From a virus: a DNA stretch of 64,000 bases. Where the stretch lies: the UHGV virus genome UHGV-0091736; one strand, 5' to 3'. The notes under the pieces are model-generated. The model was given only the letters and a program-made list of their open reading frames with translations. It was not told where the DNA came from and did no database searches. Below, piece after piece: positions 48,525 through 64,000 of this stretch. Position 1 is the first letter of the stretch, and every line of letters starts with the position of its first letter. A program made the position numbers and the translations under genes.

Positions 48525-51500
48525 ATGATCAGTTATAACAACTCAGCACCTACATCTGTTAACAACGTAGGTCAGTTTGGTGCTACGGAAGGTTCTATTG
48601 GTGCTTATAAGTCAGCAGCTGAGTATGCGGCTGATGCTAAATATTGGGCGCTTCTCTCACAGACTAAGTATTCATCTGTAGAAGATATTCTAGCCGAAGT
48701 GGAACGTCTTTATGCTCAAGGACAGTTACTTGAGAGTGATATTAAACAGCTTAGAGATGACTTTGAAGCACAGGAACAAGTACTCTTAGGTTTGATTCAA
48801 TCCACAGGGACTGCAATTGACAATACCAATGCAGCTACAGAACTATCTAGAGAAGCTACACAAGAAGTACTTGCTCAGTTAGATATCATCTCTAACATGA
48901 CAGTTCAGACTGCACTACTCCCTCCGGGAAGCTTAGCAACTGGTTCCTATGATAACTCAACAGGCGTCTTTACTTTTGGTATTCCAGAAGGGCAACCCGG
49001 CCGTGATGGTACTGATGGAACAGTTAGCGATATTGGAAATGTTCCCGTTGGTGTTCCAGTTGTTGATGACTATGGATTCTATGTAGACAAGGACGACGGT
49101 GGGTTATACAGAGCTAATATGTCAGATATTGCCAATCTTGTTCCTTCTATCAGATCTATCTCTATCAATGGCGGCGCTGAGCAAACAGGTTCAGTGGTTT
49201 TTGATTCTGTCTCCACATTCAATGGACGTAAGGGTGCTGTAGTTCCTGCTACTGGAGACTACACAGCTGCTCAAGTGGGAGCTTTTAGTGTAACTAATAA
49301 CCTATCCGAAATAACCGACACAAGTGCAGCTATTACAAATATTGGACTCGCTGAGTATGGGATTGGTAGCCCTACCTTAACCACAGTGGAGGCTCTGGAC
49401 TGGCAAACATTTAATTTTGTCAATGGAGGTAACTATTCAACATTAATGTCGAATATTACAAATGCCCCTGCTGAGATAGCATATCCTGCCAATTTTGGGT
49501 TATATATTGAAGTCATTGGCGTACTTACAGGAGGAGGTGAGGTACGAGTGGTGCCACGGACAAACAATAATAACTACTACTCAGTTTTCTCTGTAAGGTG
49601 GACTGGAATAGTTGGTTCCCGAGTATTTACAGTACGAGAAGAGCTGTCTTCCGCTCGCCCTGTGACTATCTCTCAGGGTGGCACTGGATCTACTTCAGCA
49701 GAGAATGCTCGACTAGCTCTAGTTGCTGCAAAGAGTGGAGATAACTCTGATATCACCTCTATGACTAACAAGGTTACTTTCACACAACCTCCAGTGGTTC
49801 CCGATGCTGTAGATGATAATAATGCAGTTACTTTGAGACAATTGCGTAATAGTAGCGATTCTGATGGAGTCATAGCTAACAAACAAGCCATTGCCCGTAA
49901 GTTTGGTGTTGAGCAATCAGAGGTTGTTTACTTCTCCGCAGGAGCTGCACTAAGCGGCTATAAAGTCATCTATGACAAAGAGTCACAGAAGGCTTATTCT
50001 TTACCTACTGACCTTGATTCAGATGTTACTGCTATTAGTCTTAGTACTGCTGGGGTGCTAGTTCATTCTGCTGGTAATGTGGACTTGGGTGGATTAGCAG
50101 TTACTCGTGAAGAGTATGTTACTTTACCAGGTTCATTTTCTACCGGGGTAACTGTTAATACTAAGAACGAGTTGGTTGTGTTTACTGATGGTAAATATCG
50201 TTGGGAAGGTACTTTACCTAAAGTGGTTGCTGCTGGTTCAACTCCTGCATCAACGGGGGGTGTTGGTTCTGGTGCTTGGGTCAGTGTTGGTGTTATTTCA
50301 CTAAGAACAACGATTTCTTCCACTACAGGTTCCACACTAGTTGGATATAAATATAAGTTGGAAAATTCTGCAAGTATCCGTAATGTTGCTGATGTTCTAA
50401 ATGAACGGGTCAGTCTTTGGGATTTCCACTGTGACTCATCGGGTAATATTATTCAGCCGGGACCTTCCATTGACAGTCGCCCGTATTTGCAGAATGCAAT
50501 TGATTTTGTTAGTTCTGTTGGTGGGGGTACTTTACTCATTCCTCAGGGTTACACTTGGTATCTGAATAGCATTAGCACAGGCCCCGTCTCTGGGCATAGC
50601 GGACTCATCCAGCTTAAGAGCAATGTAAGCATCAAGCTGGACGGCACAGTTAAAGTAGGTCCTGCCTTAGCTAACAGTTCCTTCCAAGTCTTCGTGGGAT
50701 TCACTGATGGTAATCCAGCTAACTCTGGTAACCTAGATAACTGCCATATATTTGGTGAAGGTAGTATTGACTTCGGGGGTTATGACTTCGCTGACGCAGG
50801 TCACTTGCGTAATGGTATCGCGTTTGGTAAGGGGTACAACTGTTCAGTAGACGGTATTACGTTCGTTAACGGTGACGTTACATGGGGTATAACTCTTGGA
50901 TGGAACGGTTACGGTTCAGACTCGCACGTCCGCAACTGCCGCTTCATTAACCTTATCCAGAGTGAAGTTAACCGTGACCATAGTACTGTTTACGTTAACT
51001 GCCCATTCAGTGGAGTTAGCAACTGCACATTCCGTGCAAGCTCTGCGCGTGCCAAGGTAATTGCGTGTACGGTGGAACTGCATCAGCAGAACACCTACTA
51101 CCGCAACAGTATCATCTCAGGTTATACACGTGGATGTTATGTAGCCCTGCATGGTGCTGAGTCTGCTGGTGCAGGTGCCTATCTGTATAATGCCGAAGTA
51201 TCTGGGGTCATCGGAGATATCTCTGGTCAGGCTGTCATATTAGCGGCAGGCCCAGATGATACAGCTACTACATACATTAATGGTCTTACGGTATCTAACT
51301 GTCGATTCACTGCTGGAAACCACCCGGGTATGTGCAGCTTCATCGACTTCTTCCAAGACGATAACTCTGACTCAAGTCAGTACCGCATCAATCACGTTAC
51401 GGTTAAAGGGTGCAGCTTCATTGTCGATAGGGGCCGTTCTCTTAGTGCAGCCATTACCCTGAACGGTAGCATTCAAGGCATCACCTTCCAGGATAACTTC

Positions 51501-52091
51501 TTCGATGTTAAGCAGGCTATGGTATCAGAACTCCCTAGCGGACGCACTGTACAGTTAGAACGCTTTAACTGGGATGCCAGCAATATCATCGGCGACGATA
51601 ACACTGGTACTCGTACTGGCCTGAACCTGTTTGAGACTCAGAGAGTATCCAGTATGTCGCGCTGTAACATTCAGGTGCATATGCGACAGCCTAGTTCGGA
51701 CCTGTACTGCTTTATGTATTTCAGGCCAAATGATACAACATTCAGTGACTGTACCTTTGAGGTATTGCCATATAATTGGTCTTGTACATCTGGTAATCCT
51801 ATATTTTTTGGCAGTACAGGCGTCCCAGCGTCTGGAATGCGCGTCAGGTTTCCTAAACAAATTTCGTTCACGTTGTCAGCCGGGAGTAACGTCCAACGCG
51901 TTACTGCTTCGGGAAGTTATGCTTGGGTGGCCCGGGCGGATGCTCTTGACCCCCGCAGTATTTCTGGGCAATTTGATGCTCCCGCATCATATACGGGGGC
52001 AAATAACGGGCAGTTGGTAGGTCTAGGCTGGCAGCTTGACGGTATAGAGCATGTTTATGATCATAATGTGTATCTTCAGAATTTCAACTGA
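48525..52091 (+). CDS. tailspike / tail fibre protein with beta-helix-like region
   Basis: 1188 aa; repetitive Asn/Gly/Cys-containing rungs (NCHIFGEG, NCSVDGITFVNG, RNCRFINL, SNCTFRAS) typical of right-handed beta-helix folds. Confidence 0.6.
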   Translation: MISYNNSAPTSVNNVGQFGATEGSIGAYKSAAEYAADAKYWALLSQTKYSSVEDILAEVERLYAQGQLLESDIKQLRDDFEAQEQVLLGLIQSTGTAIDNTNAATELSREATQEVLAQLDIISNMTVQTALLPPGSLATGSYDNSTGVFTFGIPEGQPGRDGTDGTVSDIGNVPVGVPVVDDYGFYVDKDDGGLYRANMSDIANLVPSIRSISINGGAEQTGSVVFDSVSTFNGRKGAVVPATGDYTAAQVGAFSVTNNLSEITDTSAAITNIGLAEYGIGSPTLTTVEALDWQTFNFVNGGNYSTLMSNITNAPAEIAYPANFGLYIEVIGVLTGGGEVRVVPRTNNNNYYSVFSVRWTGIVGSRVFTVREELSSARPVTISQGGTGSTSAENARLALVAAKSGDNSDITSMTNKVTFTQPPVVPDAVDDNNAVTLRQLRNSSDSDGVIANKQAIARKFGVEQSEVVYFSAGAALSGYKVIYDKESQKAYSLPTDLDSDVTAISLSTAGVLVHSAGNVDLGGLAVTREEYVTLPGSFSTGVTVNTKNELVVFTDGKYRWEGTLPKVVAAGSTPASTGGVGSGAWVSVGVISLRTTISSTTGSTLVGYKYKLENSASIRNVADVLNERVSLWDFHCDSSGNIIQPGPSIDSRPYLQNAIDFVSSVGGGTLLIPQGYTWYLNSISTGPVSGHSGLIQLKSNVSIKLDGTVKVGPALANSSFQVFVGFTDGNPANSGNLDNCHIFGEGSIDFGGYDFADAGHLRNGIAFGKGYNCSVDGITFVNGDVTWGITLGWNGYGSDSHVRNCRFINLIQSEVNRDHSTVYVNCPFSGVSNCTFRASSARAKVIACTVELHQQNTYYRNSIISGYTRGCYVALHGAESAGAGAYLYNAEVSGVIGDISGQAVILAAGPDDTATTYINGLTVSNCRFTAGNHPGMCSFIDFFQDDNSDSSQYRINHVTVKGCSFIVDRGRSLSAAITLNGSIQGITFQDNFFDVKQAMVSELPSGRTVQLERFNWDASNIIGDDNTGTRTGLNLFETQRVSSMSRCNIQVHMRQPSSDLYCFMYFRPNDTTFSDCTFEVLPYNWSCTSGNPIFFGSTGVPASGMRVRFPKQISFTLSAGSNVQRVTASGSYAWVARADALDPRSISGQFDAPASYTGANNGQLVGLGWQLDGIEHVYDHNVYLQNFN

Positions 52092-58780: not shown

Positions 58781-59563
58781 ATGGCAATTAAGATGGGTAT
58801 TGAAGAACTAGACCCAATGGTTCAACAGGCTTCAAAGAAGTATGGGATTCCTGCTGCTTTGATTCATGCTGTAATCCAAAGAGAGTCTAGTGGTCGTCCT
58901 ACAGTAGCCTCTGGAACTGGTCCTGTAGGTTTAATGCAAATCAGTAAAGGGTTGGCTAAAGACTATGGTTACAAATTAGAAGACAGACTTGACCCAGCAA
59001 AGAATATTGATATGGGTGCTCGTTATATTCGAGATAACTTAAAGGCTTTTAATGGTGATGTTAAGAAAGCAATGGTTGGTTACTCAGAAGGTATCGGCGG
59101 AGCTAAGCAAATGTTCGCTGGTAAAAAGGGATTTACACCTCAAGCCCTTGACTCAATGAACAACAAACACTTTCTCCCTTTCTATGGTGATGCAGCTTCT
59201 CAGATTGCTAACCCTGTTGGAGCTTTGCAAGCTGTTCAACCAGTCAATCAGTTTAGTCCTGACTTGTTAGATAGAGAGAAGGCCGCACAAGCTCCAACTC
59301 AGGCAGAGATTGCTGCTTCTAAGACCGGTGCTTTAGGTGGTAATCCAGTAGAGTTTTACTCTGATGAAGTACAGGAAGGTGAAAACCAGAAACCTCAACA
59401 GAACTTTGGTAATGCAGTATTAGGGGTAGCTGCTATGCTTGCTGGTAAACCTCCTACTTCTCAAACAGTTCAGAGGGCGAGTGCACCACATGCAGCAGGT
59501 TCTCAGTACAGTCTACAAACACAAGCAGTGCTCAGACGTTTGGCTAGCATTGGTGTAAAGTAA
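58781..59563 (+). CDS. lytic transglycosylase (SLT domain) internal virion protein
   Basis: 260 aa; ALIHAVIQRESSGRPTVASGTGPVGLMQIS. Confidence 0.75.
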   Translation: MAIKMGIEELDPMVQQASKKYGIPAALIHAVIQRESSGRPTVASGTGPVGLMQISKGLAKDYGYKLEDRLDPAKNIDMGARYIRDNLKAFNGDVKKAMVGYSEGIGGAKQMFAGKKGFTPQALDSMNNKHFLPFYGDAASQIANPVGALQAVQPVNQFSPDLLDREKAAQAPTQAEIAASKTGALGGNPVEFYSDEVQEGENQKPQQNFGNAVLGVAAMLAGKPPTSQTVQRASAPHAAGSQYSLQTQAVLRRLASIGVK

Positions 59564-59582
59564 TAATCTTTAAGGAGGACTT

Positions 59583-60635
59583 ATGTCTTTATTTGGAAAA
59601 TCAGCTTCTAGCAAAACCACAGTGGCCCCTTCCTCTCAGGTTGATGCCCTGCTGAAGCAGATTGTTGCTAATGCTCAGAATATGCAGAACAACGATCCGG
59701 GATTCATCTCCCAACAGCTGGCTGGGTTCAATGGCAACCAACAGGGTGCTCTGAATAACTTAGCGGCTTCTACAACTCAGAAGCAATTAGCTGATATGTA
59801 CACTCCTCGTACACAGCAAGGGTTGGACCAATTAAACTCTCTTGCACAACAGTATCAGAATATTGTCAATGGTGGTGGTCTAACTGCTGATGGTGTTAAT
59901 AACTTCAGTAAAGGATTGAATAGCTCAGCTCTTGCTCAAGCGACTAGTAAGGCAGCTTCCAATGTATCTCTCGGAAATGGTTCTGATTCAGGCTCTCTCC
60001 GTAGAGCTGCTGCTCAAGGTGCTGCTTTGAACAGTGCTAATACAAACTTAGCTCGTACTATCAGTGGCAAGAATATGGGAATCAGTGCTCTTCAACAAGA
60101 CCAAAACTTCCAGAGGGGCTTACTTGGTGCTCAGTCAGGGTTGGCTGGACAGAACCTCAACCTAGGTGCTCAAGGTGTTCAGGCAACTCAACAAGCTATC
60201 CAGAATCAACTCATGGCTGGTAATCTACAACAGCAACAAGCTCAAGCTCAAGCTGATATTAATTGGCAGAACGCTATTGGCTCTCAGCAGTATGGGTGGA
60301 ATCAGCTTAACAACCAACTTAATGTATTAAATAGTGTAAGCCCAATGGCTGGGTACACGATTAAGAATGCTGCTCCGGGGGTTAATACTGGACAACAGCT
60401 CCTAGGTGCTGGTATCACTGGATTAGGTATTGCAGGGCGTATGGGTGCTTTCTCTCCTAATCAACAGACTCAGAATGCTTGGAGTTCCTATAACAACTCA
60501 GGTGGGCAATCTGGAATGGCTGGACCTATGATTGGAGGTTCTAATCTTTCTCAACAGAGAGGTCAGTCTAACTGGTTATCCACAGCAGGTAGTAATATCT
60601 TAGGTGGTGTCTTAGGGGCATTTGGAGCAAACTAA
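59583..60635 (+). CDS. Q/N/G-rich internal virion protein, tandem paralog A
   Basis: 350 aa; MSLFGK start, QQ/NN-rich, C-terminal Gly-zipper-like hydrophobic tail. Confidence 0.5.
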   Translation: MSLFGKSASSKTTVAPSSQVDALLKQIVANAQNMQNNDPGFISQQLAGFNGNQQGALNNLAASTTQKQLADMYTPRTQQGLDQLNSLAQQYQNIVNGGGLTADGVNNFSKGLNSSALAQATSKAASNVSLGNGSDSGSLRRAAAQGAALNSANTNLARTISGKNMGISALQQDQNFQRGLLGAQSGLAGQNLNLGAQGVQATQQAIQNQLMAGNLQQQQAQAQADINWQNAIGSQQYGWNQLNNQLNVLNSVSPMAGYTIKNAAPGVNTGQQLLGAGITGLGIAGRMGAFSPNQQTQNAWSSYNNSGGQSGMAGPMIGGSNLSQQRGQSNWLSTAGSNILGGVLGAFGAN

Positions 60636-60647
60636 AGGAGAATATCT

Positions 60648-61616
60648 ATGTCACTTTTTGGTGGAGGCGGAAGTAAAACTACTTCCCAAATGATTCGCCC
60701 TGAATACATTCAACAGTATATTGACCAGCTTAACCAACAGATTGGTAATACTAGTTCAGGGGATTATGTTTATCGAGATAATGTAGGGTTTAATAACAAC
60801 CAGACAGAGGCACTTAACAACTTAGCACAATCTGGTGCTCTAGGAACTCTCTCACAGCAATACATGGATGCAGCAGGTCAAGGCTTGGGTTATCTAGATA
60901 ATGCCTATAAAGGCTATCAGAGCCTATCTGGACAAGGTGGGATTACTGGAGAACAGATTGGTGCTCTCGCTGGTCAACTGTATGATGATGACGCTGTGCA
61001 AGCAGCCATTACAGCTAATAATGAACAAGTTCAACAGAACTTGGCACGTAATGCTCTTCCTCAGTTGGCTCAGCAGTATGCTGGTCAGCAAGGTTCAGGT
61101 GCTCGTATGGCTAAGTCTTTTGCCCAAGGCGATGCTCTGAATCAGATGCAAGGTCAAGCAACAGATATTACCAACAGTGCCTATAACTCAGCTATTAGTC
61201 AAGCTGAAAGCATTCTCTCTGGTAATAGACAGAATCAGGCAGCTGCTCTTTCTGGTCTTTCTAATATTGGTTCTAACCTTTCTAACCTAGGTCAGCAGGG
61301 TGCTAATTTGTCTCAACAGCAAATAATGAATCAATGGAATGCAGGGTTGCAGCAACAACAGCAACAACAGAATGAATATGACAATGCCTACCAGAATGCT
61401 CAGAACGCAGCTAATTGGGGATGGCAAGATATCAATAACCAACTCGGTGCAGCAGGTGTGCTTAACGGCGCTCTCGGACAAACCACAACTACTAAAACAT
61501 CTGGTGGCAAAGGTGGTTTCCTTGGTGGAGCTATGAGTGGTGCAGCAGCTGGCTCCTCCTTTGGGCCTTGGGGTGCATTAGCTGGGGGTGTAATCGGTGG
61601 GTTGGCTAGTACTTAA
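60648..61616 (+). CDS. Q/N/G-rich internal virion protein, tandem paralog B
   Basis: 322 aa; MSLFGGGGSKTT start; C-terminal GFLGGAMSGAAAGSSFGPWGALAGGVIGGLAST. Confidence 0.5.
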   Translation: MSLFGGGGSKTTSQMIRPEYIQQYIDQLNQQIGNTSSGDYVYRDNVGFNNNQTEALNNLAQSGALGTLSQQYMDAAGQGLGYLDNAYKGYQSLSGQGGITGEQIGALAGQLYDDDAVQAAITANNEQVQQNLARNALPQLAQQYAGQQGSGARMAKSFAQGDALNQMQGQATDITNSAYNSAISQAESILSGNRQNQAAALSGLSNIGSNLSNLGQQGANLSQQQIMNQWNAGLQQQQQQQNEYDNAYQNAQNAANWGWQDINNQLGAAGVLNGALGQTTTTKTSGGKGGFLGGAMSGAAAGSSFGPWGALAGGVIGGLAST

Positions 61617-61629
61617 TTAGGAGATAAAT

Positions 61630-63285
61630 ATGCAACAGACAACTTACGCTCAGGTCAGAAGTCGTGACCCGAGAAATACTTTCTATGGTATTAATCCGGG
61701 AGCGGCTTCGGCCTCTCCTTATATGGCTAGACCTACTCAGACAGCGGATGTTTCTATGTACCAACGTCCTGCTGTACCTTCATCTCTTGCGGGTCTTGTC
61801 TCTCAGGCAGAAGAAGATCAGAATGCTATGGTTAATCCGGGATTCCAGCAACGTCTTATGGAACAGCAGAATCAAGGAACTCCTACAAGTCTTCAGGGTA
61901 TTGATATTGGAGCACCGGCCCCTGTAGTGGCTAACCCTAACCTATCCACTGATCAAGGTTTACAGGATGCTGGACTTATGCCTAGTGACCCTCTTCCGGT
62001 AACACCTCCTACTAAACCATTAGAAGCTGGCCCTATGGAGTTTACTCCTTCTCAAGTGGAACAGGCACAGGGTGTTATTAATACTCTTGCTCAAGGTCAG
62101 GATACTGGTGATGGAATGACTGCTGCTACTCGTGCTAAAGATCAGGAACGTGTTAACTCTGATATTGTGCAAGTTGCGAAAGCTAAAGACCCTTCAGAAG
62201 CTTGGAACAAACTACAGAAAGAACCATTCTATCAGAACTCTAGCTTCTATACAGGTTTGATGGGTGTAGGTCTTTCAATCATGTCAGGTAAGTCTCCTAT
62301 CGAAGCTTTCCAGATTGGTCAGGGAATGGCTAATCAAGATGAGACTAAGAAGCAATTGGAAGCTAACCGTGATGCTCTGATTGAACAAGGTTTCTCTCAA
62401 GACTCAATCGCAGCTGCTATTGCTAACGGAGACCCATCCCTGCTGAAGATGAAAGCTGTAGACCCTGCTCAGAAAGAGGCGTTGTATGCTGCTCGTGAAG
62501 AACGGCAGAATGCTGAATGGGATAGACGTCAACAGATTCAAGAGCAATCTATGCGTGAACGTGCCGAGGAGACTCGTCGTGCCGCTGAAAAGAGGACTGA
62601 CATGAACTTTGAACGTCAGAAAGAGTTGATTAGTTATCGTGATAAGGTTAAGGCTGAACGTGCTGAACAAGCTGCTCAGAGTTTTAACTTTAACCCGAAA
62701 GAAGTTCGTCTTGCTCAGAACACAGCTGAAGGTACGGTTGCTAAGCAGTGGGCAGAGAAAGGTGGTCTGTTTAATCAGTCCAACAAAGACTTGGATTTGG
62801 CTGACAAAGCAGTTAAAGAGAAAGACTATCAGACAGCTCGCTCTGCTTACATGCAGGCTATCATGAACTCCGCAAGGGCTGAAATCGGTGCTACTCGTTC
62901 TCTTACTGAAGAAGACTTGGGACATTTTGCAGAAGACCCATCAATCTTTGTTCGTGTTGGTAACAAGTTTGCGCTGAAGTCAGGATGGCGTCCTACTGAT
63001 GCTGCTCTTTCTTATGCTCGTAAGCAGGCTAACGTTGGTCACACCTCTGCAATGAAAGGTGTTTCTGATGCTAAGAAAGCTACTATCGAAGCGTACATCG
63101 GTTCTGGTATGGATAAGAAGAGAGCTACTGCATTGGTTAACCGTGCGATTCCTTCTGGTGGTTTCTATGATCCTCTAGGAGTTTTCTCTGAACAAGCGGA
63201 AGAATCCGTTGGTGGTGCAGCAACCAATCCTAAGCTTAATGGTGCTTTATCAGCTGTCGAAGATACTAGCTGGTTCGCCCAATAA
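61630..63285 (+). CDS. virion protein with long coiled-coil region
   Basis: 551 aa; SD AGGAGA. Confidence 0.5.
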   Translation: MQQTTYAQVRSRDPRNTFYGINPGAASASPYMARPTQTADVSMYQRPAVPSSLAGLVSQAEEDQNAMVNPGFQQRLMEQQNQGTPTSLQGIDIGAPAPVVANPNLSTDQGLQDAGLMPSDPLPVTPPTKPLEAGPMEFTPSQVEQAQGVINTLAQGQDTGDGMTAATRAKDQERVNSDIVQVAKAKDPSEAWNKLQKEPFYQNSSFYTGLMGVGLSIMSGKSPIEAFQIGQGMANQDETKKQLEANRDALIEQGFSQDSIAAAIANGDPSLLKMKAVDPAQKEALYAAREERQNAEWDRRQQIQEQSMRERAEETRRAAEKRTDMNFERQKELISYRDKVKAERAEQAAQSFNFNPKEVRLAQNTAEGTVAKQWAEKGGLFNQSNKDLDLADKAVKEKDYQTARSAYMQAIMNSARAEIGATRSLTEEDLGHFAEDPSIFVRVGNKFALKSGWRPTDAALSYARKQANVGHTSAMKGVSDAKKATIEAYIGSGMDKKRATALVNRAIPSGGFYDPLGVFSEQAEESVGGAATNPKLNGALSAVEDTSWFAQ

Positions 63286-63292
63286 GACCTAA

Positions 63293-63337
63293 GTCCTGCC
63301 TTCTATAATGTATATAGGGGGTAGGACATTTTTATTT
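63293..63337 (+). promoter_or_regulatory. hairpin enclosing TAATGTATA motif followed by T-run
   Basis: GTCCTGCC...GGTAGGAC stem with loop TTCTATAATGTATATAGGG (motif 63306-63314), then ATTTTTATTT. Confidence 0.4.
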
Positions 63338-63352
63338 ATAAAAGGAGACGTT

Positions 63353-64000
63353 ATGGCTAACATTAAACCGTGGGAAGAAGCTTCCAAAGCTCCTGCGTAT
63401 CTGAATGCCTCTCCGGAGCAACAAGCTCGAATGAGAGAACAATATAAGGCAGCAGGTGGCTCTATTCCTGAGGAACAGCCAGTAGCACAACCACAACAAG
63501 AAGAACGTGGTGCTATAGGTGAGTTTGCTCAAGGTGTGTCAAATGCTCTTCAATCTGGTGGTGCAAATATTGCAGCTAGTGCTGCTAAAGGTATTGGTGG
63601 TTTAGTTGAGATTGGTGAGAATCTAGCTGGAACACAAACTAGTTATGGTAAGCGTATCCAAGAGAACTCTCAGAACCTTCTGAAAGAACGTATGGAGAAG
63701 ATTGAGGACGGGATTGGTAAATCTGCTGGTCAGTACGCTGGAGTGGCTGCCGATATCGGTTTGACTGTTGCTAACCCATTAGCTGCCGCTGCTATCATCG
63801 CAGGTCGTGAGACAGGTCGTGCATATGCGGACCAAACCCCTGAAGATGGAGAAGATAAGTCTATCCTAGATGCAGCCTTAGTTGGTGGTGCTAACTATGC
63901 GGCTCAGAGAATCCTTCCGGGTGCTGTTGGTACAGCTGAGTCCGCACTTGGACGTATCGGTCAGAACGTTGCTAGTAACGCAGTGGCTGGTGCTAAAGGT
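63353..64000 (+). CDS. partial CDS (5' end of a large virion protein; continues past window)
   Basis: Open frame from ATG 63353 (SD AAGGAGA) to window end, 216 codons; Ala/Gly-rich; not in ORF track as no stop in window. Confidence 0.55.
   Translation, partial: MANIKPWEEASKAPAYLNASPEQQARMREQYKAAGGSIPEEQPVAQPQQEERGAIGEFAQGVSNALQSGGANIAASAAKGIGGLVEIGENLAGTQTSYGKRIQENSQNLLKERMEKIEDGIGKSAGQYAGVAADIGLTVANPLAAAAIIAGRETGRAYADQTPEDGEDKSILDAALVGGANYAAQRILPGAVGTAESALGRIGQNVASNAVAGAKG

Follow-up and report, generated by a model that had tools for sequence, protein, structure and literature searches.

The window analysed here, a stretch of 64,000 nucleotides from the virus genome UHGV-0091736, carries two adjacent genes whose products we call A and B. 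We think it highly probable that A and B are paralogous internal virion proteins of a Kuravirus, ejection proteins that would help to build a conduit for the DNA through the host envelope. No parts of short-tailed phages are less well understood than the ejection proteins, which have to exit the head via a narrow channel and then reassemble into a conduit across the envelope. That A and B are ejected virion proteins is already known from phage SU10 and is not new, so the evidence supports the interpretation given in the initial annotation.

The locus

By its sequence the window comes from a Kuravirus, a coliphage of the phiEco32/SU10 type. Its nucleotide identity to phiEco32, SU10 and their relatives is 94-96%, and the gene order SLT - 350 aa - 322 aa - 551 aa - 1473 aa is common to the window, phiEco32 and SU10:

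58781..59563, + strand: SLT lytic transglycosylase, 260 aa; orthologue of SU10 gp20 and phiEco32 gp22
59583..60635, + strand: paralogue A, 350 aa; orthologue of SU10 gp21 and phiEco32 gp23; PHROG 4287 ejection protein
60648..61616, + strand: paralogue B, 322 aa; orthologue of SU10 gp22 and phiEco32 gp24 ('putative DNA injection protein'); PHROG 4287
61630..63285, + strand: 551-aa protein; orthologue of SU10 gp23 and phiEco32 gp25 by synteny; PHROG 12130, function unknown
63293..63327, + strand: terminator-like hairpin from a consensus scan, with a 15-bp stem and a T-run after it, located between the 551-aa and giant genes
63353..64000, + strand: start of the giant ejection protein (first 215 codons; SU10 gp24, 1473 aa), which runs past the window end

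The initial annotation described two adjacent ORFs that both start MSLFG and directly follow a protein with an SLT domain. The ORF translations bear out the first part and the domain search the second. The gene at 58781-59563 opens the ejection-protein block; its product matches Pfam PF01464 (SLT) at E 1.2e-23 (83 bits, cut-off 21.3) and also PHROG 12507 transglycosylase. Its assignment draws on synteny with phiEco32 and SU10, and SU10 gp20 has been named as an ejection protein with transglycosylase activity (PMC9509320). A Shine-Dalgarno sequence lies a few bases 5' of each ORF, AAGGAGG for A and AAGGAG for B, and a promoter scan of 58-64 kb returned sites at no more than the number expected by chance. 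Further downstream, the translation of the giant gene has nearly every residue the same as SU10 gp24. Gene order places the 551-aa protein in a tunnel-like slot, similar to that of T7 gp15, and SU10 gp23 is a virion component that is ejected (PMC9509320, PMC4281155). BLASTP found no similarity between the 551-aa protein and LUZ24 gp51, which corresponds to the Pa223 tunnel protein, so the equivalence of these two is one of gene order and size alone.

Virion content and ejection in SU10

The case for internal virion proteins is carried by SU10. A shares 97% protein identity with SU10 gp21 and B shares 99% with SU10 gp22. The lengths are the same (350 and 322 aa), as is the slot between the SLT gene and the 551-aa and 1473-aa genes, and only a few substitutions separate the proteins, 11 in A and 2 in B; the B orthologue of SU10 begins MGLFGG whereas that of the window begins MSLFGG. 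The conserved N-terminus reads M-[GS]-L-F-G-G. At the codon level A has 58 synonymous and 11 non-synonymous differences from the SU10 gene and B has 39 and 2, respectively; both genes are under purifying selection.

Mass spectrometry of SU10 virions gave 53% coverage of gp21 and 49% of gp22 (PMC4281155), and Supplementary Table 1 of the SU10 cryo-EM study lists ORF 21 (350 aa) and ORF 22 (322 aa) as present in the virion and detected by mass spectrometry (PMC9509320). SU10 gp20-24 are ejection proteins because they are present in virions and missing from the genome-release intermediate (PMC9509320). Near-identical orthologues of A and B are packaged with the DNA in the prolate head and leave the particle at genome release, and RefSeq labels both proteins DNA ejection proteins. 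No density is resolved for gp21 and gp22 in the SU10 maps, and the building of a channel by the ejection proteins is inferred in the cryo-EM paper too (PMC9509320).

A and B as paralogues

Both proteins had been called rich in Gln, Asn, Gly and Ala, and they are when the 25 other long ORFs of the window serve as background. Q makes up 14.3% of A and 15.2% of B (background 4.0%), N 12.0% and 9.9% (5.9%), G 13.4% and 15.2% (7.4%), and Ala 13.1% and 13.4% (7.8%), while charged residues make up only 6.6% and 8.7% (23%). The suggestion of tandem paralogy also holds up in alignment. BLASTP with compositional adjustment finds 32% identity over 275 aa (E 6e-13), and the Smith-Waterman score of 274 stands against 93.6 +/- 12.8 for 300 shuffles (z = 14). 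We take A and B to be true paralogues, with a similarity that exceeds what their composition would give.

Glycine-rich tails and predicted structure

The ends of both proteins had been described as Gly-zipper-like hydrophobic tails. Both do end in glycine-rich stretches, which are uncharged, but strict GxxxGxxxG repeats are found in B and not in A, and the hydrophobicity is only moderate. Three segments are of interest:

60396..60458, + strand: A, first glycine-rich uncharged segment (aa 272-292), the QLLGAGITGLGIAGRMGAFSP region; Kyte-Doolittle hydropathy (KD) 1.16
60573..60632, + strand: A, C-terminal glycine-rich uncharged segment, the second of the two (aa 331-350), WLSTAGSNILGGVLGAFGAN; KD 1.03
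61503..61613, + strand: B, glycine-zipper tail (aa 286-322), GGKGGFLGGAMSGAAAGSSFGPWGALAGGVIGGLAST; GxxxGxxxG motifs

The first segment of A is the top hydropathy window of that protein and its sequence is preserved in the six A-clade tails compared. The second is preserved in close relatives and variable among distant members of the A clade. Both contain small-xxx-small repeats only, whereas the B tail has five overlapping strict GxxxGxxxG motifs, at aa 286-317. The PWG core of the motif GPWGALAGG in the B tail is kept in 39 of the 42 B-clade proteins, and the glycines of the tails hardly vary in either clade. Tail hydropathy is 0.9-1.2 over 19 aa, below that of a classical transmembrane helix. 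Neither A nor B matches the Pfam models Gly-zipper_Omp or Gly-zipper_YMGG at E <= 1; among relatives in the family, three proteins match Gly-zipper_YMGG and two match Gly-zipper_Omp.

A first AlphaFold2 run, whose shallow alignment comprised 76 close relatives, reached only pLDDT 45 and was not usable. With a diverse alignment B is predicted to be all-alpha (pLDDT 76, 254 residues at >= 70), with helices at 19-34, 50-61, 63-95, 101-111, 114-143 and 150-275 and a tail (aa 286-322) that is unstructured, with pLDDT below 50. Fold searches with this model returned generic long helical hairpins and no specific solved relative, and sequence searches of solved structures with A, B and a family profile of 111 sequences found no relative.

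The family and its link to LUZ24

A and B match the PHROG 4287 profile, 'DNA ejection protein', at E 2.8e-117 (profile positions 1-392) and E 1.6e-109 (positions 1-321). An exhaustive profile search recovers 503 representative proteins at E <= 1e-3; these represent clusters at 50% identity, and the number is a lower bound for the family. It spans hundreds of other phage lineages, is often fused to cell-wall hydrolase domains, and has conserved positions along the entire length of its alignment. The A and B clades are sister groups with one copy each per genome and with single-copy relatives outside them, and the pair stems from one old duplication. The retention of both copies, with tails that diverged, points to joint action, for instance in one mixed ring or two stacked ones.

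One relative with a proposed function is in the Bruynoghevirus phages LUZ24 and Pa223. The family profile aligns with LUZ24 gp53 over 249 columns (hhalign probability 98.4%, E 9e-15), and gp53 itself matches PHROG 4287 at E 2e-10. Like A and B it has a GSSR-type motif, poly-Gly after a Thr-rich stretch, and a tail rich in glycine. At 313 aa it is near them in size, and it comes first in a series of small, ~500-aa and ~1000-aa genes; the order small, ~500 aa, ~1000-1500 aa is common to Kuravirus and Bruynoghevirus. Unlike A and B, it is single-copy, has an N-terminal extension of ~25 aa, belongs to PHROG 7477 and ends ...GGLLF. The Bruynoghevirus protein (LUZ24 gp53, Pa223 gp56) is a virion protein, and Pa223 gp56 (313 aa) has been proposed as an outer-membrane channel, with an AlphaFold3 model of a nonameric channel (bioRxiv 10.1101/2025.06.11.659172). 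That Pa223 gp56 acts in the outer membrane is itself predicted. We infer that LUZ24 gp53 is its counterpart because size and gene order are identical and the protein is conserved in the genus, not from the Pa223 sequence. Specialists may find it useful that A and B are homologous to a protein of LUZ24-type therapeutic phages for which an outer-membrane channel role has been proposed.

A proposed mechanism and its rivals

We propose that A and B traverse the portal-nozzle channel in an extended state, a passage that their low charge and helical Q/N/G/A-rich sequence would suit. Outside the particle they would refold and oligomerise into a long helical tube extending the nozzle, and their glycine-zipper C-terminal tails would pack together and insert into a host membrane. 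Because of gene order and the homology to Bruynoghevirus gp53, we place them in the membrane-proximal 'gp14-like' slot of the ejectosome, where the membrane would most likely be the outer one. The SLT protein would cut peptidoglycan, and the 551-aa and 1473-aa proteins would complete the periplasmic and inner-membrane parts. Several things count against this proposal. The tails are only moderately hydrophobic (KD ~1) and are disordered in the AlphaFold2 prediction. A and B match neither the Pfam glycine-zipper models nor P22_gp7, and they have no detected whole-length similarity to T7 gp14 or to P22 gp7, gp20 or gp16. The precise role in the conduit, outer-membrane pore or periplasmic tube, is put forward here as a proposal.

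The most serious rival accepts ejection and moves A and B deeper into the envelope. The 28-nm nozzle and needle of SU10 may already cross the outer membrane, in which case A and B would form a periplasmic tube or make the contact with the inner membrane. The predicted helix 150-275 would be ~19 nm long if straight, far exceeding the thickness of a membrane, and with 320-350 aa the proteins have about twice the length of gp14-like outer-membrane proteins. On attachment the tail of SU10 becomes 28 nm longer, and the description of the ejection proteins goes no further than a 'putative extension' (PMC9509320). However, A and B precede the 551-aa and 1473-aa genes just as gp14-like proteins precede theirs, the homologous Bruynoghevirus protein is assigned to the outer membrane, and the tail motif of B is common to P22 gp7, an outer-membrane ejection protein. 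We regard the deeper placement as possible, though the less probable of the two.

Two further rivals were weighed. A and B could be internal core or scaffold-like proteins that mainly serve to assemble the head, or to organise or retain DNA in the prolate head, their loss at ejection being incidental. The SU10 orthologues are abundant in virions (PMC4281155), and the phages with the known single-copy relatives (7-11, GAP52, Privateer) have prolate heads as well. LUZ24-type phages and hundreds of other lineages carry the family too, however, often fused to cell-wall hydrolase domains, which argues for action at the cell envelope, and a separate scaffolding protein was detected in SU10 virion preparations (PMC4281155); we consider this explanation improbable. 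It is harder still to believe that the two proteins are low-complexity, prion-like or disordered filler without a defined fold, alike in composition only. Q and N together at ~25%, the scarcity of charged residues and the pLDDT of 45 in the shallow run would fit such an idea. It is rejected because the similarity of A and B withstands both compositional correction (E 6e-13) and shuffling (z = 14), the diverse alignment gives a confident helical model (pLDDT 76, 254 residues >= 70), and conserved positions run throughout the length under strong purifying selection. A and B as paralogous ejection proteins is the reading that we believe explains the whole best.

Relatives with a Peptidase_S74 domain and a possible wider reading

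The single-copy 'DNA injection/ejection protein' of the Grimontviridae (7-11, GAP52_022, Privateer gp018) belongs to the same PHROG 4287 and is 27-29% identical to A and B over the helical body; Privateer gp018 is a verified virion protein. It exists as one copy of ~410 aa, in contrast to two copies of 350 and 322 aa, and its glycine tail is followed directly by a self-cleaving Peptidase_S74 domain, which A and B lack (no Pfam match to it in either at E <= 1). In GAP52_022 the domain scores 22.1 bits against a Pfam cut-off of 22, and catalytic-Ser motifs are seen in relatives. Peptidase_S74 corresponds to the last ~70 positions of the PHROG 4287 profile and occurs in 14 of the 111 aligned relatives; the giant fusion proteins of the family likewise have it directly after the glycine tail.

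These observations allow a wider reading that we offer tentatively and would not bet on. A and B would belong to a large class of podophage ejection proteins, not yet described and separate from T7 gp14 and P22 gp7, that descends from a self-cleaving polyprotein. With Peptidase_S74 directly after the tail ('...G-x-F | SDxRxK'), cleavage would yield a helical module with a free glycine-zipper C-terminus and part it from downstream cargo such as a cell-wall hydrolase or gp23-like segments. In Kuraviruses a stop codon would have replaced the cleavage site, the cargo would have been split into separate genes, and the module would have been duplicated to give a two-component channel matched to the extendable nozzle. 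The GPWGA..GG..G tail, present in P22 gp7 as well, would be a membrane-insertion or ring-closing device common to otherwise unrelated ejection proteins. A family of at least 503 clusters, with S74 recurrent exactly at the end of the glycine tail and a tail motif in P22 gp7, may be of use to specialists, and this context leads to testable ideas on the construction of the channel and on the reason for two copies in Kuraviruses.

Comparison with T7 and P22

T7 gp14, the outer-membrane pore of the T7 ejectosome, is a functional analogy only. It too is an internal protein, small and helical, whose gene opens its operon and which is the first to be ejected, but it has 196 aa and no glycine-zipper tail, and hhalign detects no sequence similarity to the family (probability 0.3%).

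P22 gp7 (Pfam PF25688, outer-membrane ejection protein) is closer in character. Neither A nor B matches PF25688, and profile-profile comparison of gp7 with the family (hhalign) aligns only 13 C-terminal columns, at a probability of 22-42%, with nothing significant elsewhere. A longer homology was rejected, as the forced alignment is collinear but statistically unsupported, and profile comparisons with P22 gp20 and P22 gp16 found no whole-length similarity. P22 gp7 is also shorter, 229 aa against 322-350 aa, and its N-terminal 20 residues are removed by a host protease. Like A and B, however, it is rich in Q, N, A and G, has few charges and a glycine-rich C-terminal tail, and occupies the first small-protein slot of the ejection operon. 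The motif GPWGALAGG of the B tail also ends P22 gp7, where TPWGAAIGGGIG aligns with GPWGALAGGVIG of B at the extreme C-terminus.

The tandem genes and their products

The initial annotation suggested that two tandem genes directly after an SLT-domain gene encode internal virion proteins forming a DNA-ejection conduit. We believe this interpretation is right, since the orthologues of both proteins in phage SU10 are found in virions. The ejection role is already known from SU10 and is not new. What we add is modest and lies at the family level: homology to a Bruynoghevirus protein, fusion to S74 at the end of the tail, a tail motif like that of gp7, and how old the duplication is. These links are worth specialist attention. 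The genes, with their phiEco32 and SU10 counterparts, are:

58781-59563, + strand: SLT transglycosylase gene upstream of A, 260 aa (SLT domain, E 1.2e-23); phiEco32 gp22, SU10 gp20
59583-60635, + strand: paralogue A, ORF of 350 aa; phiEco32 gp23, SU10 gp21 (97% protein identity to SU10)
60648-61616, + strand: paralogue B, ORF of 322 aa; phiEco32 gp24, SU10 gp22 (99% protein identity to SU10)
61630-63285: 551-aa protein; phiEco32 gp25, SU10 gp23
from 63353, cut by the window end: N-terminus of the 1473-aa giant protein, first 215 codons nearly identical to SU10; phiEco32 gp26, SU10 gp24

A Shine-Dalgarno sequence precedes both A and B, and both proteins begin MSLFG, as had been noted. Their composition is unusual within this genome. 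Set against 25 other long ORFs, glutamine makes up 14.3% of A and 15.2% of B (background 4.0%), asparagine 12.0% and 9.9% (5.9%), glycine 13.4% and 15.2% (7.4%) and alanine 13.1% and 13.4% (7.8%); charged residues (D, E, K, R) make up 6.6% and 8.7% (23%). The earlier description holds throughout, with the nuance that the tails, noted as glycine-rich and hydrophobic, are hydrophobic to a moderate degree only (Kyte-Doolittle about 1). The last 37 residues of B form a glycine-rich tail that holds five overlapping GxxxGxxxG motifs. In A, which lacks this strict zipper motif, two uncharged segments rich in glycine (residues 272-292 and 331-350) flank a Q/N/S-rich linker. The two proteins are real paralogues, as proposed, and their likeness goes beyond composition: BLASTP with compositional correction aligns them at 32% identity over 275 residues (E 6e-13), and their Smith-Waterman score lies 14 standard deviations above shuffles (n=300).

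Orthologues in the Kuraviruses

The block 58781-63285 has 94-96% DNA identity to Kuravirus Escherichia phages, including phiEco32 and SU10. The codon differences from SU10 are 58 synonymous and 11 non-synonymous in A, and 39 and 2 in B, so both genes are under strong purifying selection. Mass spectrometry of SU10 virions covered 53% of gp21 and 49% of gp22 (PMC4281155). In the cryo-EM study of SU10, ORF 21 (350 residues) and ORF 22 (322 residues) are likewise listed among the virion proteins seen by mass spectrometry, packaged in the head and gone after genome release. Its authors conclude that these are ejection proteins and propose that they lengthen the nozzle into a channel crossing the periplasm and that gp20 degrades peptidoglycan; the maps hold no density assignable to them (PMC9509320). 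RefSeq labels both genes 'DNA ejection protein', and their PHROGs family is 4287.

A strong terminator-like hairpin (63293-63327, + strand; a 15-bp stem, then a T-run) separates the 551-aa gene from the giant gene, 8 bases past the stop of the former and 26 ahead of the start of the latter, so the ejection block may be two transcripts, or read-through may be attenuated. Elsewhere in the window, a 1188-aa tail protein (48525-52091, + strand) has the look of a mosaic tailspike, with Pfam matches to Tail_spike_N TSP1/Gp66, Phage_spike_2 and HK620_9_C; phiEco32 has in its place a pair of tail-fibre genes, located upstream of its lysis genes. A host-range module has probably been exchanged. The GC skew changes sign at about 37-38 kb, and long ORFs lie on the - strand up to 37206 and on the + strand from 39545. 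Here the early/replication genes give way to the structural module.

A probable old duplication in a wide family

An exhaustive search with a profile built from both the A and B clades, the A-type and B-type proteins of the family, yielded 503 representative proteins out of 1.84 billion (E <= 1e-3). Members open with an M-[GS]-x-F-G-G N-terminus and a run rich in Thr and Ser, continue with a body of some 270 residues that includes a GSSR-like motif, and close with a Thr-rich stretch, poly-Gly and a glycine-rich uncharged tail. In loose form the N-terminus with its Thr/Ser stretch is kept far beyond the Kuraviruses, in 77 of the 131 representatives of at least 285 aa from this search. B-clade proteins most often start MGLFGG, and A-clade proteins MSLFGS (counted over P0001-P0097). 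A packaging signal, a processing site and the first part to exit are candidate roles for this N-terminus.

In a neighbour-joining tree (without bootstrap) the A-type and B-type proteins form two sister clades, one copy of each per genome, and the single-copy proteins of 7-11, GAP52 and Privateer fall outside both. This points to one old duplication, retained since. Among Kuravirus relatives, at 41-50% identity at the lowest, A-like and B-like proteins are reported on longest contigs of equal size, which suggests that they share contigs. A distant Kuravirus-like contig associated with Enterobacter (L003; Logan SRR24679947, 59.9 kb, Enterobacter cloacae run) has at 8025-15838 the order SLT (291 aa), A-like (333 aa), B-like (322 aa), 490 aa and 1108 aa. 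One source also lists this B-like protein on a contig of 317 kb, perhaps a misassembly, perhaps an element that is integrated or carried.

The tails of the two clades have diverged. GPWGALAGG keeps its PWG core in 39 of the 42 proteins of the B clade and in none of the 51 of the A clade. Six A-clade tails were inspected; they share a conserved first segment (QLLGAGITGLGIAG) and vary in the C-terminal one.

Peptidase_S74 fusions

Peptidase_S74 is a self-cleaving intramolecular chaperone domain, as in endosialidases and tail fibres. A and B lack it, but it stands directly past the glycine tail in the single-copy relatives (about 410 aa) and in many longer ones (800-1600 aa), and the Pfam model matches 14 of 111 aligned relatives. 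In the 18 representatives with both a glycine tail and an SD...K motif, the tail stops immediately before the serine, for example ...GGPWGAGVGAVLGGVGSIF followed by SDQRYK. We take this serine and lysine to be the catalytic Ser-Lys dyad of the S74 family, with the putative scissile bond here. If S74 cleaves here in the manner known from tail fibres, the freed module would finish with a glycine zipper and then Phe. The encoded C-termini of LUZ24 gp53 (...GGLLF) and P22 gp7 (...GSLF) resemble this predicted end.

Some long relatives carry a cell-wall hydrolase domain further on (Hydrolase_2 in family member P0164), and residues 736-784 of P0164 match the motif FYTGLMGVGLSIMSGKSPIEAFQIGQG of the 551-aa protein (E 5e-4; P0156, E 0.015). 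The phages concerned may therefore produce several ejection functions within a single polyprotein. The motif occupies residues 206-236 of the 551-aa protein, and its match lies in the C-terminal extension of the S74-fused relatives; a similar stretch, AVLGVAAMLAGKPP, is found at residues 212-225 of the SLT protein.

Proposed position within the conduit

From a diverse 111-sequence alignment, AlphaFold2 confidently predicts an all-helical B (mean pLDDT 76, 254 residues at 70 or above) with helices at 19-34, 50-61, 63-95, 101-111, 114-143 and 150-275; it leaves the first 14 residues and the glycine tail without structure. The model is a monomer of a protein expected to act as a refolded oligomer and should be read with caution. 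Fold searches of solved structures gave only generic long helical hairpins and sequence searches of them found no relative, so the family has no solved relative.

We consider it quite likely that A and B are ejected components of the conduit. Extended during their passage through portal and nozzle, they would then refold as an oligomeric tube of helices, with glycine-zipper tails that pack together and insert in a host membrane. This tube would be the conduit's membrane-proximal part; the SLT protein would open the peptidoglycan and the 551-aa and 1473-aa proteins would supply the rest of the path. That both paralogues are retained with diverged tails suggests they act together.

Which membrane is a harder question, and we hold the outer membrane only tentatively, at a little under even chances. 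The main alternative puts A and B in the periplasm or at the inner membrane, given that the nozzle and needle of SU10 may by themselves span the outer membrane and that very long helices are predicted.

Comparison with characterised ejection proteins

The family profile matches LUZ24 gp53 of the Bruynogheviruses (313 aa; hhalign probability 98.4%, E 9e-15, 249 columns), which independently matches PHROG 4287 (E 2e-10). In phage Pa223, a close relative of LUZ24, gp56, also 313 aa, is a virion protein proposed as the outer-membrane channel of the ejectosome, and AlphaFold3 gives a hollow channel only with nine copies (bioRxiv 10.1101/2025.06.11.659172). We equate LUZ24 gp53 and Pa223 gp56 on their identical size, on neighbouring genes that also agree in size (505 and 1055 aa) and on a conservation of at least 94% among Bruynogheviruses of P. 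aeruginosa, rather than on the Pa223 sequence.

Profile comparison found no similarity of the family to T7 gp14, P22 gp20 or P22 gp16. In P22 gp7 the extreme C-terminal motif alone aligns (PWGAAIGGGIG against PWGALAGGVIG, hhalign probability 22-42%). The Pfam P22_gp7 model weakly matches one relative (E 0.0027), and a few of the Foldseek matches in predicted viral structures are 'DNA transfer proteins' (E 2e-3 to 2e-2), next to many proteins with S74. These matches are suggestive of a shared tail device, not an established homology. The gp14-like, gp15-like, gp16-like order of T7, P22 and others matches the order small, ~500 aa, ~1000-1500 aa (PMC8954989); the Kuraviruses differ in that their transglycosylase is a separate gene, placed in front.
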